This document shows positions 1 through 41,415 of a DNA stretch of 64,000 nucleotides, piece after piece. Every line of letters starts with the position of its first letter. Positions within the stretch are counted from its first letter, which is position 1. Origin of the DNA: Candidatus Nomurabacteria bacterium RIFCSPLOWO2_01_FULL_42_17. GTDB taxonomy: Bacteria > Patescibacteriota > Minisyncoccia > Phycocordibacterales > UBA9973. Under the pieces are notes generated by a model. The model saw nothing but the letters and a program-made list of their open reading frames with translations. It was not told the origin of the DNA and did not search any database. Both the position numbers and the translations under genes were made by a program. The DNA is taken from NCBI GenBank assembly GCA_001785985.1, contig MFVE01000002.1, forward strand, positions 28,600 to 92,599, in the 5' to 3' direction.

Positions 1-48
1 TCTACCGATTCTGCCAAAACCATTAATGCCAACTTTGATTGTTTTCAT
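1..48 (-). CDS. gap: Glyceraldehyde-3-phosphate dehydrogenase, N-terminal fragment; the gene continues beyond the window edge
   Basis: The reverse complement of bases 1-48 translates to MKTIKVGINGFGRIGR, the classic GAPDH NAD-binding N-terminus. Confidence 0.55.
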   Translation of the reverse strand, partial: MKTIKVGINGFGRIGR

Positions 49-72
49 GTTATTACTATAACACTTTTTAAA

Positions 73-375
73 CTAAATTTTAATCTCCAACTTTCCACCA
101 AGCGCGGTGGAAAGTTTCTTTAGAAAAGAAAGTGTCGGATTGTATGCGCCAGATTCAAATCGAGCTATAGCAGGTTGTTTTGTGCCAAGTTTCTTTGCTA
201 AATCTTTTTGAGACATTTTATTTTTTATTCTCATTTTTATCATTGCCTCAACAATAGCAAACTCTGGTTCCCAATCTTCGTAGGCTTTTCTATATTTAGG
301 ATCTTTCATCCATTTTTCATGCAGATCGGAAAATTTAGTCATATCCTTTATTGATTTTTTTTGTTCTTTTTTCAT
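73..375 (-). CDS. XRE-family HTH protein, putative HigA-like antitoxin
   Basis: A 100-aa protein with an HTH motif (QKDLAKKLGTKQPAIARFESG). It lies immediately downstream of a RelE/Gp49-like toxin gene on the same strand. Confidence 0.6.
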   Translation of the reverse strand: MKKEQKKSIKDMTKFSDLHEKWMKDPKYRKAYEDWEPEFAIVEAMIKMRIKNKMSQKDLAKKLGTKQPAIARFESGAYNPTLSFLKKLSTALGGKLEIKI

Positions 376-418
376 ACTTTACAATATAACATATACGTTA
401 TATTAAACAAGTGGATAA

Positions 419-727
419 CTATGAGATAGCAGTCTGCCTTCTTTTCGCTAAATCTAATTCCCTTTTTGCTATTCTATCAGTCTTTTTTGCGAAAGCATGA
501 AGTAAAATAGCACAATTCTCATGAAAACAATATATTATCCTGATAGGAACTTTACCAGATATACGCAATTCAAAAAGTCCCCCACCTAAGCTTTTACTGT
601 AAGGCATTTCTATTTCATTTCCAACCATAATTAACATGTGCAAAACTTTTGAAACTTTACTTCTAGTAATTTCTTCCAAGCTCTCTAAGAATTTATCTAC
701 ATCAGTTGAAAAGTTTCTGATTTCCAT
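419..727 (-). CDS. RelE/ParE-superfamily toxin, HigB/Gp49-like (DUF891-type)
   Basis: A 102-aa protein with LFELRI..RIIYCF..ILLHAFAKKT signatures of phage Gp49-like HigB toxins. It sits upstream of the HTH partner, the usual higBA order. Confidence 0.6.
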   Translation of the reverse strand: MEIRNFSTDVDKFLESLEEITRSKVSKVLHMLIMVGNEIEMPYSKSLGGGLFELRISGKVPIRIIYCFHENCAILLHAFAKKTDRIAKRELDLAKRRQTAIS

Positions 728-732
728 CGTAA

Positions 733-1011
733 CTAAATACCTTTATTTCTATTTTTAATTTTTCCGTAAATCCAGCCAATCAGAGCCCCGTAAGCAAAAC
801 CATTTAATATGACAACAATAATCTGTCCTAATATTGGCATTGTTCCAAGTATCATGCCTGGTCCTGAAAGAACGTACATAGTTGTTGGCAGATAAAAGTA
901 GTTAATGGCATCAGCCAGATTACCATCAGTCCCTTTGAAAAGATAAATAGGAACCGAAATAATCCCACACATAAGACCTATCCACAACCAATATTTTGTT
1001 TTCATCTTCAC
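733..1011 (-). CDS. Small membrane protein, hypothetical
   Basis: A 92-aa ORF with two or three hydrophobic helices. Confidence 0.3.
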   Translation of the reverse strand: MKMKTKYWLWIGLMCGIISVPIYLFKGTDGNLADAINYFYLPTTMYVLSGPGMILGTMPILGQIIVVILNGFAYGALIGWIYGKIKNRNKGI

Positions 1012-38349: not shown

Positions 38350-40587
38350 GTGAGATACATTTTTACCATTATCGGTAGTGTTGTTTTAACCGTCACCCTG
38401 GTTGCATTTTTTTTTAATCTCCGGCAAGTCAACGAGGAGCGCGCAACACTGACGATCAACTTGGAGCAACGAGCAACCTTGCTCGCCGACAGCTTGAAAG
38501 AATCTGTGGAACCTTCCTATGTAAATTCTTCCGGAGCTTCCCTGCATACCGCTCTCCAAAGAACCGTGGACAAATTCGCCAACCGTGAGAGGTTGGCGGG
38601 CATTGCTCTGTACGACAACAAAGGAGCACTCCTAGCCACTTCCTCGGGTCTGCCAAAAACAATTATTGAAAACACCAAATCCGTTTCCGACGCGATGGAT
38701 AGTAATAAATCAAAGAGCGACTTTGTGGACGCCGACGGAGAGACGCGCTATGTCTTTGTCGACCCCTTGCACAACGATGAGGGAAGCATCCTGGGAGCTT
38801 TGATGATCGTCCAAAATGCCGGATATATAAATAATACTATTGCTGAAATGTGGCGAGGCAGCCTGATACGACTAGTCACGCAAATCATAATCTTCTCCAT
38901 CACCATTTTTATAATCCTGCGATTTTTCGTTTTCCGGCAAGTTGTCCGCTTGGTCGAGTCTATCAAGCAAATCCGCATGGGCAAAAAGACTGAGATTTTC
39001 AAGGACACGGATAAATATTCTTTCTTTGCGCCGCTAGCCAAAGAGATCAACCAGATAACCAAAAGCTTATCCCAGGCACGTTCATCGGCCAGTGAAGAAG
39101 CGCGCATGAGGCTGGAAAAACTTGATACACCTTGGACAGCCGAACGTTTGAAAGAATTCATTAAGGCATATTTAAAAGGTAGAAAGATCTTTGTTGTTTC
39201 TAATCGTGAACCGTATATACACAATAAAATTAAAAATGAAATCAAATATCTTGTACCCGCGCACGGCATGGTCACAGCTGTTGAATCAGTCATGGAAGCA
39301 TGTGGAGGCTTATGGATTGCGCACGGCAGTGGAGACGCTGACAAGGAAACATCTGATAAAAATGGAAAAATTCAAGTTCCACCCGAAGAGCCTAAATATA
39401 CCTTGAAACGTATTTGGTTAACTCCTGAAGAAGTGCAAGGACACTATGTCGGTTTTTCCAACGAAGCTCTCTTCCCTCTTTGTTTGATGTCTCATACCCG
39501 CCCAGTATTTCGAAAAGAAGATTGGATGATATACAAACAAGTCAATGGCAAATTTGCGGAAAGTTTACTAAGAGAGATAAAAAATGTCTCCCAGCCGATT
39601 GTATTAGTGCAAGACCTCCATTTTGCGCTAGTGCCAAGTATAATCAAAAAAAATCGTCCTGATGCACAAGTAGGGCTCTTTTGGCATCATCCATGGCCTT
39701 CACCTGAACAATTTAGCATTTGTCCTTGGCGACATGAAATTATTAAAGGAATGTTGGGAGCAGACGTTATCGGTTTTCATATTCAACAACATTGCAACAA
39801 TTTTCTCGAAACAGTCGGACAAGAGTTGGAATCAATAATAGATTTCGAACGCTTTTCTGTAACTCACAATGGCCACACTACCATCATTCGTCCTTTTCCT
39901 ATATCAGTTGCACTAACAAATGATGTTTCTCCTAAAGAAGATAATAAAAATATTAAAACATTCAAATCATTCGGCATAAAAACAGAATTTCTAGGACTCG
40001 GTGTTGATCGACTTGATTACACGAAAGGTATCCTCGAGAGATTTAGGGGTATTGAATATTTTCTTGATACCTACCCAGAGTACATAGGAAGATTTTCTTT
40101 TTTACAGATTGCGGCACCGAGCCGAGAAGGCGCCCAAAAGTATAAAGAATACGCAGAAAGCGTTAAACTAGAGGTTGACCGTATAAATAAAAAGTTTGAG
40201 TTTGGAGATTGGAAACCAATTATATTTGAAAAAAAACACCACTCCCACGCAGAGCTTACACCTCTGTACCGTGAGACACATTTTTGCCTCATCACTTCAC
40301 TACATGACGGCATGAATTTAGTTTCAAAAGAGTTCATTGCGGCACGAAACGATGAACAAGGAGTACTAATACTGAGTGAACTTACAGGAGCGGCAAGAAG
40401 TTTAAAAGAGGCCATATTATTTAATCCCTATAATATTGCTGAAATTGGCGAAGCTATCAAGCGCGCTATCCAGATGCCTCCTTCTGAACAGCATGTGAGA
40501 ATGAAAACTTTACGCGGAAGGGTAAAAGACTACAATGTATACCGTTGGGCGGCAGAATTTATAAAAGAAGTTACTAATCTCGGCTAG
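38350..40587 (+). CDS. otsA: Trehalose-6-phosphate synthase (GT20) fused to an N-terminal two-TM extracytoplasmic sensor-like module
   Basis: The first roughly 210 residues contain two TM helices flanking a roughly 150-aa loop, followed by a HAMP-like helix. The GT20 core follows (VVSNREPY..., LFWHHPWPSPE, GVDRLDYTKGI). Confidence 0.85.
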   Translation: MRYIFTIIGSVVLTVTLVAFFFNLRQVNEERATLTINLEQRATLLADSLKESVEPSYVNSSGASLHTALQRTVDKFANRERLAGIALYDNKGALLATSSGLPKTIIENTKSVSDAMDSNKSKSDFVDADGETRYVFVDPLHNDEGSILGALMIVQNAGYINNTIAEMWRGSLIRLVTQIIIFSITIFIILRFFVFRQVVRLVESIKQIRMGKKTEIFKDTDKYSFFAPLAKEINQITKSLSQARSSASEEARMRLEKLDTPWTAERLKEFIKAYLKGRKIFVVSNREPYIHNKIKNEIKYLVPAHGMVTAVESVMEACGGLWIAHGSGDADKETSDKNGKIQVPPEEPKYTLKRIWLTPEEVQGHYVGFSNEALFPLCLMSHTRPVFRKEDWMIYKQVNGKFAESLLREIKNVSQPIVLVQDLHFALVPSIIKKNRPDAQVGLFWHHPWPSPEQFSICPWRHEIIKGMLGADVIGFHIQQHCNNFLETVGQELESIIDFERFSVTHNGHTTIIRPFPISVALTNDVSPKEDNKNIKTFKSFGIKTEFLGLGVDRLDYTKGILERFRGIEYFLDTYPEYIGRFSFLQIAAPSREGAQKYKEYAESVKLEVDRINKKFEFGDWKPIIFEKKHHSHAELTPLYRETHFCLITSLHDGMNLVSKEFIAARNDEQGVLILSELTGAARSLKEAILFNPYNIAEIGEAIKRAIQMPPSEQHVRMKTLRGRVKDYNVYRWAAEFIKEVTNLG

Positions 40588-40596
40588 AAATCAAAA

Positions 40597-41415
40597 ATGA
40601 AAATCGAGCATAGAATGGAGCAACCAATGAGAAATCTTTTTGAAAATATTACTGAAATAAAAAGTCAGATCGAGCAAGCTGGAGGGGCTACCCTGCTTCT
40701 AGACTTCGACGGCGTACTCTCGGCTATTGCGCCCACTCCAGATGAAGCATTCATTTCGGAAGAAAATAAAGCACTTCTAAAAGCGTGTGCCGAGCGTTTT
40801 CCAGTCGCTGTGATTACCGGTCGGGAACTTTCTGAGATAAAGAAAAAAATGAAAGTCGAAAATCTTTTATATATCGCTAGCCACGGCCTCGAATGGGAAG
40901 AAGATGGCAAGGACCATGCCAAAACCGTTCCGAAAGAAACAATGGAAGCTATTAATTTAGCAAAAGAAAAGATCAAACCCCTGCTCCCTCGCTATCCAGG
41001 AATGATTTTCGAGGATAAATCTTTCATGTTTGCGGCTCACTACCGGATAATGGACCCAGCGCTGATTGATGCTTTCGTAAAAGAAGTAAATTCTATTTTA
41101 GAACCAATTGTCAAACAATACAATCTCCGCCTGGATCATAATCTAATGACTTTTGAATTACGACCAGAAATTGATTGGGACAAGGGGGATAGCGTCAAAT
41201 TTGCCGAGGAGCATTTAAGTAAAAAAACTGGGAAAAAATTCATGCCTATATACATTGGAGATGGCCTGACTGACGAAGACGCTTTTGCGGTATTAAAAGA
41301 AAAAGGCATCTCCATTCGCGTAGGTGAAGATAGGAAAAGCGTCGCAAAGTGGTACATGAAAGATCAAAAAGAAGTGGCACTTTTCTTGAAGTGGTTATTG
41401 TCTTTAAAGCAATAG
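40597..41415 (+). CDS. otsB: Trehalose-6-phosphate phosphatase (HAD IIB)
   Basis: It has a LLLDFDGVLS motif I and a C-terminal GDGLTDEDAF motif. Confidence 0.8.
   Translation: MKIEHRMEQPMRNLFENITEIKSQIEQAGGATLLLDFDGVLSAIAPTPDEAFISEENKALLKACAERFPVAVITGRELSEIKKKMKVENLLYIASHGLEWEEDGKDHAKTVPKETMEAINLAKEKIKPLLPRYPGMIFEDKSFMFAAHYRIMDPALIDAFVKEVNSILEPIVKQYNLRLDHNLMTFELRPEIDWDKGDSVKFAEEHLSKKTGKKFMPIYIGDGLTDEDAFAVLKEKGISIRVGEDRKSVAKWYMKDQKEVALFLKWLLSLKQ

Follow-up and report, generated by a model that had tools for sequence, protein, structure and literature searches.

The locus and its fusion gene

The window analysed here, a 64,000-nucleotide (nt) stretch of contig MFVE01000002.1 (positions 28,600 to 92,599; GC content ~41%) from Candidatus Nomurabacteria bacterium RIFCSPLOWO2_01_FULL_42_17, carries a single open reading frame (ORF) for a 745-amino acid (aa) protein in which an N-terminal membrane module of sensor type is joined to a C-terminal glycosyltransferase family 20 (GT20) domain of the OtsA/Tps1 type, the trehalose-6-phosphate (T6P) synthases. 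The gene is followed closely by otsB, which codes for T6P phosphatase (Table 1). The original prediction for this locus was that the additional N-terminal residues form an extracytoplasmic sensor resembling that of a histidine kinase, and that trehalose synthesis is thereby gated by an external signal.

Conservation is reported throughout as counts in an alignment of 51 full-length family members, and the related loci referred to are the best 80 of 204 stretches encoding the sensor module in species-representative genomes. More than 120 homolog clusters with lengths of 740–750 aa, each covering 100% of the query at 56–91% identity to the window protein, lend support to the position of the GTG start codon; the closest of them (85–91%) came from Patescibacteria/Nomurabacteria metagenome-assembled genomes (MAGs). 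Since the sensor part and the GT20 domain share one reading frame in 80/80 related loci, an assembly or gene-calling artefact was ruled out as the source of the fusion.

Table 1. Coordinates of the fusion gene, the segments of its product and the adjoining otsB gene (TM, transmembrane segment; AF2, AlphaFold2 model; residues are those of the fusion protein)
Feature	Window position	Residues	Strand	Basis or remark
Whole sensor-GT20 fusion gene	38350..40587		+	ORF list; GTG start, TAG stop at 40585-40587
TM1 membrane anchor	38350..38421	~1-24	+	Hydropathy; extended by a long helix that enters the sensor domain
Single-Cache (PAS-like) sensor, WalK type	38422..38856	25-169	+	
TM2	38857..38937	~170-196	+	Hydropathy peak 2.5, present in 51/51; inside AF2 helix 158-209
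HAMP-like helix-connector-helix	38938..39075	197-242	+	AF2, family pattern, hhalign
Conserved coupling linker, ARSSASEEARMRLEKLDTPWTAERLKEFIKAYLKG	39076..39180	243-277	+	Output helix, DxPWT turn, helix into GT20 strand 1
GT20 (OtsA/Tps1-type) trehalose-6-phosphate synthase domain	39181..40584	278-745	+	
otsB, trehalose-6-phosphate phosphatase	40597..41415		+	272 aa; 9 nt 3' of the fusion gene

Membrane topology and the extracytoplasmic sensor domain

Kyte-Doolittle hydropathy averaged over 19 residues exceeded 1.6 only at aa 1–25 and aa 170–202, both with peaks of ~2.5, and the two hydrophobic regions were present in 51/51 aligned homologs, a result which confirmed that the N-terminal region has the two TM helices ascribed to it. 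The mean net charge in the same homologs was −1.1 over the 15 residues past TM1 and +3.4 over the 18 residues past TM2: the positive-inside rule assigns the segment beyond TM2 to the cytoplasm, and aa 25–169 are therefore located outside the cell. A cytoplasmic location of the GT20 domain also agrees with its need for cytoplasmic nucleotide-sugar and sugar-phosphate substrates. The predicted topology is accordingly N-in/C-in with an extracytoplasmic domain of ~145 aa, close to the 150 aa or so originally anticipated. TM1 was also considered as a cleavable signal peptide and rejected, its hydrophobic stretch being longer than 20 residues and without an AxA site, while the AF2 model has an unbroken helix from residue 2, through TM1 and into the sensor domain, as far as residue 59.

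When a profile of the N-terminal module was compared with the Protein Data Bank (PDB), the extracellular domain of Staphylococcus aureus WalK (5is1, 7dud, 4ywz) was matched over the whole domain with E values of 1.6e-4 to 1e-3. The AF2 model of aa 1–277, with a predicted local distance difference test score (pLDDT) of 76, showed a PAS-like alpha/beta core flanked by two long helices, one on its N-terminal side and one on its C-terminal side that leads into TM2. Foldseek aligned 280 columns to 9a5d_A, the integrative model of WalK in the WalK-YycH complex (E 8e-12; query template-modelling score 0.68), and this alignment ran from TM1 through the sensor and TM2 to the cytoplasmic helices next to the membrane. 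In a similar manner, aa 11–256 matched positions 17–261 of the 594 in the NCBIfam WalK profile (E 2.5e-12), so that this alignment extended through the HAMP-like region as well. On these profile and structural matches, the domain enclosed by the TM helices is a single Cache domain, closest to the extracellular domain of WalK, and the resemblance to a sensor histidine kinase holds for the entire succession of TM1, Cache, TM2 and helix/loop/helix that makes up the first 280 residues of the WalK model.

The structural matches were all to extracytoplasmic sensor domains, which ruled out the identification of the N-terminal region with a known cytoplasmic regulatory domain of GT20 enzymes. Neither is the protein as a whole a sensor histidine kinase, there being no HisKA or HATPase_c matches and the WalK profile match ending at position 261, beyond which the remainder is GT20. 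Kinases were likewise absent both from the homologs of the N-terminal 277 aa found by a word-indexed search, which were fragments or members of the same family only, and from the best 150 of 1,621 profile matches (E<=1e-3), which again belonged to the same family.

Family members share a mean pairwise identity of 48% in the sensor part, where many polar residues are nearly invariant, and this part is therefore considered to be under purifying selection. Conserved polar positions occur both in the Cache domain and in its long helix, and include a LADSLKESVEP motif. One variant of 913 aa, encoded on a single Logan contig (P0186), has two tandem Cache-like domains followed by TM2, the HAMP-like part, the linker and GT20.

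The HAMP-like segment and the coupling linker

Beyond TM2, the AF2 model has a helix extending to aa 209, a loop of low confidence at 210–226 and a second helix from aa 227. The corresponding family pattern comprises P197 (28/51), G211 (41/51) and F225/F226, P228 and E232 (51/51), with hydrophobic residues in heptad spacing at 198/201/202/205/208 in the first helix and 229/233/236/240 in the second, and with F217 and F225/F226 as connector hydrophobics. This pattern has hallmarks of HAMP domains, in which Pro opens and Gly closes the first amphipathic helix (AS1) and a conserved Glu stands at the start of the second (AS2). Using hhalign, the segment was aligned to the Af1503 HAMP domain with a probability of 67.5% (pairwise E 5e-5), an alignment in which Glu232 coincides with the glutamate of the DEIG motif and the connector is 7 residues longer in the present family. 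Af1503 HAMP structures also made up three of the six top PDB profile matches, in full register and with E values (0.6–1) that are not significant. The segment may be a divergent HAMP domain, a moderately supported assignment for which the term 'HAMP-like' is used here. The HAMP-like element of the original prediction finds moderate support in the helix-loop-helix, the heptads and the hhalign match to Af1503, and none in the Pfam HAMP model (see below).

The linker between this segment and the enzyme was the most conserved region of the protein, with a mean pairwise identity of 0.76 compared with 0.62 for GT20 and 0.41–0.48 for the TM1, Cache, TM2 and HAMP-like parts. Its consensus is SASEEARMRLEKLDxPWTAERL, and A243, A247, E250, A251, R254, W262, T263 and L267 are invariant in 51/51 members. 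The full-length AF2 model (pLDDT 85) depicts it as the end of a helix (227–257), the DxPWT turn and a further helix (264–275; pLDDT ~87) that runs into GT20 strand 1. Peak conservation at this site is what would be expected of a linker that transduces a signal.

The GT20 domain and OtsB

Pfam Glyco_transf_20 matched aa 280–742 over profile positions 3–472 of 473 (E 5.8e-108; 362 bits against a cutoff of 32.5), and the domain could be aligned end to end with Candida albicans Tps1 (5hut, E 6e-74) and other solved OtsA/Tps1 structures. Comparison of the full-length AF2 model with 5hvl, 5hut, 5jio and 1gz5 gave target-normalised template-modelling scores of 0.86–0.91, with E values down to 2.5e-34. 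The SNR(E)P motif lies in strand 1 and aligns with the start of solved Tps1. Positions G306, H446, R554, K559, R592, D653 and E661 were invariant (51/51) and D422 was kept in 48/51; these and R286 were mapped by motif to the substrate-binding and catalytic residues of Escherichia coli OtsA (R9, G22, D130, H154, R262, K267, R300, D361 and E369). The arginine of the SNREP motif, R286 (window:39205-39207), presumably corresponds to R9, which contacts the phosphate of glucose-6-phosphate; it was R in 43/51 members, Q in 6/51 and G in 2/51, substitutions that may alter acceptor binding in a subset of the family. As judged from its sequence and model, the GT20 domain is complete with an intact active site, and T6P synthesis is the predicted activity.

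The otsB product scored 163 bits with TIGR00685 (cutoff 68) and matched Pfam Trehalose_PPase with an E value of 2.9e-40. No terminator-like site was detected in the 9-nt gap that separates it from the fusion gene, and the two genes are probably co-transcribed. The predicted partnership with otsB is thus borne out in the window and, as a directly downstream gene, in 38 of the 68 evaluable related loci.

These results also bear on an inside-out or moonlighting arrangement, in which the GT20 domain would be mainly a sensor of sugar phosphates or nucleotide sugars that controls the extracytoplasmic Cache-like domain, or would be catalytically irrelevant. The replacement of R286 by Q or G in 8/51 members is in keeping with such a role, as is the OtsA of an Arthrobacter, which has been reported to double as an osmotic stress sensor regulating morphogenesis (PMC5685639). 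The invariance of seven catalytic or substrate positions, the close fold match to active Tps1/OtsA enzymes and the co-location of a dedicated T6P phosphatase in most loci all indicate a working synthase, and render the proposal highly improbable. In addition, Cache domains are not known to have an effector activity, which also counts against it.

Distribution and gene neighbourhoods of the fusion

When the profile of the N-terminal module was searched exhaustively, 1,621 representatives reached E<=1e-3; the number that passed E<=1e-30 was 140, and fragments were common among the matches. The best 80 of 204 stretches bore Nomura-, Kaiser-, Taylor-, Doudna-, Jackson-, Magasanik-, Davies- and Levybacteria labels together with Gracilibacteria, Peribacteria, Microgenomates and similar ones, and a few were labelled Gammaproteobacteria or Bacteroidales, these labels being unverified. 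The sensor-GT20 fusion was present at every one of these 80 loci, which cover Parcubacteria-type, Microgenomates-type and Gracilibacteria MAGs and are almost all from Patescibacteria. The fusion is not strictly confined to this candidate phyla radiation (CPR), because a cluster that includes PYV27934.1 is labelled Acidobacteria and its 761-aa member (P0188) is encoded on a soil contig of 60.6% GC (L088:3232-5517), where the gene adjoins one for an outer-membrane beta-barrel protein and another for an Ada/AraC regulator. In the databases the fusion proteins are named simply 'trehalose-6-phosphate synthase' or 'hypothetical protein'. Copies were found on two contigs (L036 and L071) of one MAG, isolate SRP050083_co2_53, a duplication that paralogs or a mixed bin could explain.

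Among the 80 loci, otsB was directly downstream of the fusion gene in 38 and within ~1.2 kb in 3, was absent within ~2.5 kb in 27, and could not be evaluated in 12. The otsA-otsB pair recurs in three lineages with differing flanking genes. At loci without an adjacent otsB, what becomes of the product may vary among lineages, as perhaps may its identity. In Davies-/Levybacteria-type and Microgenomates-type loci, a gene for a family 4 glycosyltransferase (GT4) begins 4–13 nt downstream of the fusion gene (L048:6242-7429, L051:6230-7366, L064:6243-7415 and L042:6221-7366), and at one further locus the downstream gene is of the inositol-monophosphatase family (L087:6225-6986). Close Nomurabacteria relatives have a convergent gene for a family 2 glycosyltransferase (GT2) at this place (L012:6265-6975(-) and L010:4748-5467(-)). 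In a Doudnabacteria MAG, the otsB gene downstream of the fusion is split into ORFs of 88 and 163 aa (L003:7223-8011), possibly as the result of a frameshift or as a pseudogene; on a related contig (L004) the corresponding ORF is of 206 aa and follows a gap of 170 nt.

The same module on a second enzyme

A further family was encountered in which the TM-Cache-TM-HAMP-like module continues into a domain of glutamate-cysteine ligase family 2 (GCS2) rather than GT20, as exemplified by P0212 (L007:3373-5445). Five clusters of such proteins (P0212 and P0327-P0330), 682–717 aa in length, were identified in Paceibacterota and Parcubacteria MAGs on contigs of up to 316 kb; the other ~115 GCS2 homologs among the matches listed were soluble proteins of 420–521 aa from CPR bacteria and DPANN archaea. 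The module of the window protein and that of P0330 were 31% identical over 207 aa (E 5e-34). With P0212 the profile match stopped past the HAMP-like part, and the GT20-specific linker was missing from the GCS2 fusions. To judge from these sequences, the sensor part behaves as a transferable module, and its occurrence on a second enzyme family strengthens the claim of external gating.

An exchange of output at the HAMP boundary is in the nature of signalling modules, whereas nothing of the kind would be expected of a simple anchor. It could nevertheless be supposed that the module does no more than anchor and dimerise a constitutively active T6P synthase, for instance to channel its product to membrane-associated glycosyltransferases, exporters or the envelope, with the Cache-like domain being structural or envelope-binding. 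The GT4 and GT2 neighbours, which hint at a link to glycoconjugate synthesis, and the loci where otsB is not adjacent would suit this explanation, as would a Cache domain without a known ligand and the lower conservation of the sensor parts relative to the enzyme (0.41–0.48 against 0.62). A single TM helix would however suffice for an anchor, so that a two-TM Cache and HAMP-like assembly with near-invariant polar residues would be superfluous, and it is the connection between the HAMP-like part and the enzyme that is the most conserved segment of all. Channelling specific to trehalose also fits poorly with the grafting of the module, at the HAMP boundary, to a GCS2 ligase that has soluble relatives. 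Anchorage without regulation is for these reasons considered unlikely.

Proposed mode of action

The interpretation preferred here, to which we would assign a probability of roughly 55%, is that the window protein is a one-component transmembrane receptor-enzyme whose sensor allosterically controls T6P synthesis. In such a scheme, the N-terminal module, probably dimeric and built to the WalK design, would respond to an extracellular signal. Its action on the Cache domain would alter TM2 and the HAMP-like bundle, and the conformational change would then be relayed by the conserved output helix and the DxPWT turn, an element that reaches GT20 strand 1 within ~20 residues, to the N-terminal lobe of the GT-B enzyme. 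The signal would thereby raise or lower the synthesis of T6P, which OtsB could then convert to trehalose. What the analysis establishes is the topology, the folds, an intact active site, the conservation of the fusion and the reuse of the sensor on a second enzyme; that the protein dimerises and is controlled allosterically, in which direction and by what kind of signal, is inferred, and the gating of trehalose synthesis by an external cue, as originally proposed, is likewise suggested by the architecture.

A number of considerations weigh against this interpretation. The present analysis revealed no experimental or computational sign of a signal-dependent change in enzyme activity. The dimeric four-helix HAMP bundle is assumed, the models being of monomers, and within them the connector has pLDDT values below 50 at aa 212–223. 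Pfam HAMP was unmatched in the 51 full-length members and in 24 excised post-TM2 segments at E values of up to 10, and the HAMP assignment consequently rests on weaker evidence. Pfam Cache matches fell below their gathering scores (24.1 against 45 for dCache_1, and 21.8 against 27 for Cache_WalK); one or other of these models was matched at E<=0.01 in just 12/51 members, and SMP_2 weakly in 34/51. The conservation of the linker could stem from packing on GT20 rather than from signal transmission. With regard to the output, the enzyme scored below the NCBIfam equivalog cutoffs (397 against 565 bits for TIGR02400, the OtsA model, and 457 against 634 for PRK14501), which marks it as a divergent GT20 subfamily, and otsB is non-adjacent in 27/68 evaluable loci, with a GT4, GT2 or inositol-monophosphatase-family gene in its place.

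As to what a receptor of this kind might perceive, the single-Cache domain of Bacillus subtilis WalK is needed to sense changes in the activity of cell-wall D,L-endopeptidases (PMC7299342), a role which makes the fold class a genuine extracellular sensor and a cue derived from the cell envelope one candidate signal. Most plausibly the stimulus would be a small molecule or an envelope-derived cue; an osmotic or physical input is equally open, because trehalose acts as a stress protectant.

The input could also be physical instead of a ligand in the Cache pocket, if osmolarity, ionic strength, membrane tension or envelope stress were sensed through the TM and HAMP-like region so as to give direct osmotic control of compatible-solute synthesis. 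Trehalose is a classical osmo- and desiccation protectant (PMC3518184, PMC3308980), the evidence from architecture is the same as for sensing of a ligand or envelope cue, and at one locus (L005) a mechanosensitive-channel gene (MS_channel_2nd) lies ~1.9 kb upstream of the fusion homolog. The conserved polar positions of the Cache domain and the LADSLKESVEP motif suggest by contrast a specific binding or interaction surface, and sensing of this purely physical kind is regarded as quite unlikely.

More tentatively, and with a likelihood somewhat short of even, the receptor-enzyme interpretation may be extended to both families: the GT20 and GCS2 fusions may represent an unrecognised class of HAMP-coupled transmembrane receptors that have a primary metabolic enzyme (a T6P synthase or a GCS2 carboxylate-amine ligase) as their output in place of a kinase, chemoreceptor or second-messenger cyclase, that would use a WalK-type Cache sensor to switch the synthesis of a stress protectant directly and allosterically, and that would provide genome-reduced CPR bacteria with a single-protein, transcription-independent route from an envelope, host or environmental cue to protective metabolism.

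Relation to known systems

Only the input half of the protein is WalK-like. Unlike WalK (YycG/VicK) of the Firmicutes, it is without cytoplasmic PAS, DHp (HisKA) and ATPase domains and hence incapable of phosphotransfer, its output being a GT20 glycosyltransferase; the identity between the sensor domains is just ~18–22%, and no equivalents of the WalK partners WalH and WalI were seen near the window gene. With the soluble OtsA/Tps1 enzymes (E. coli OtsA, 1gz5/1uqu; C. albicans Tps1, 5hut; Mycobacterium thermoresistibile OtsA, 5jij), the protein has in common the full GT-B GT20 domain at ~30% identity and the motif residues, and in the window the adjacent otsB partner. These enzymes are of ~455–515 residues and have no membrane or sensor module, whereas the window protein has ~277 additional N-terminal residues.

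The bifunctional OtsA-OtsB proteins (PRK14501) are of similar length (~729 aa), and PRK14501 gave the best NCBIfam score for the window protein, 457 bits, by way of the GT20 half. They carry a C-terminal phosphatase in place of an N-terminal membrane sensor; the match was confined to profile positions 3–462 of 729 and the phosphatase is here a separate ORF, so that a bifunctional identity was rejected.

Close functional parallels are the HAMP-adenylyl cyclases and the Cache-HAMP-GGDEF diguanylate cyclases, in which an extracytoplasmic sensor, two TM helices and a HAMP domain are fused to a catalytic domain that is controlled allosterically with no phosphorelay. The logic of receptor and enzyme is the same; their products are signalling molecules, whereas the window protein has as output an enzyme of primary metabolism that makes the precursor of a stress protectant, and the sibling family has a GCS2 ligase. 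With the exception of SMP_2, a census of Cache domains (2016) reported none but known signalling outputs for them; it would have missed the fusion proteins because its data set was built from proteins with such outputs (PMC4822843). The full-text literature, apart from subscription-only papers, which lay outside the scope of the search, yielded no account of a Cache/HAMP-GT20 protein and none of trehalose synthesis under regulation in Patescibacteria. As far as can be told, the parts are all known, while their combination and the class of output that it implies are undescribed.

Should the sensor indeed control the enzyme, a single protein would lead from an outside cue to a protective sugar with no kinase, regulator or transcription involved. 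The repertoire of Cache/HAMP outputs would be widened to ordinary metabolic enzymes, a quick response to stress or to a host would be open to CPR/Patescibacteria with their tiny genomes and few regulators, and the protein would offer a tractable model for the control of a GT-B glycosyltransferase by a HAMP-type coiled coil, with the conserved linker as an obvious target. To our knowledge the exact signal of WalK itself is still not defined, and work on that kinase could profit if a ligand were found for the WalK-like Cache domain in the simple setting of the fusion protein.

Flanking genes and upstream sequence

A promoter-like site is present at window:38315-38343 (TTGAAT, a 17-nt spacer and TAAAAT, with an extended -10 TG). 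Its -10 hexamer ends 6 nt ahead of the GTG codon, so that a transcript starting from it would have little or no leader; the promoter scan as a whole returned a number of sites close to chance (17 found, 12.4 expected). No obvious Shine-Dalgarno-like sequence precedes either the fusion gene or otsB.

Downstream, on the opposite strand, are genes for CTP synthase, FtsX, FtsE and a peptide-chain release factor, RF2, with PCRF and RF-1 domains (window:41417-46358 (-)). This order is repeated beside the homolog in a Paceibacterota MAG (L001) and not in the Doudna- and Magasanikbacteria loci. On the upstream side, a 398-aa ORF (window:35663-36859 (-)) has an N-terminal hydrophobic segment and a Pro-rich stretch, and gave no Pfam match at E<=0.1. 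Between it and the fusion gene, and co-directional with the latter, is an ORF for a 303-aa protein with two PhnB-like repeats (3-dmu-9_3-mt, glyoxalase fold; window:37397-38308 (+)), which terminates 41 nt upstream of the fusion gene. A functional tie to these neighbours (CTP synthase, FtsEX, RF2 and the PhnB-like protein) was considered and set aside, as they are housekeeping genes and the flanks vary between lineages. Small glyoxalase-fold genes are likewise situated upstream of the fusion homolog at locus L005.

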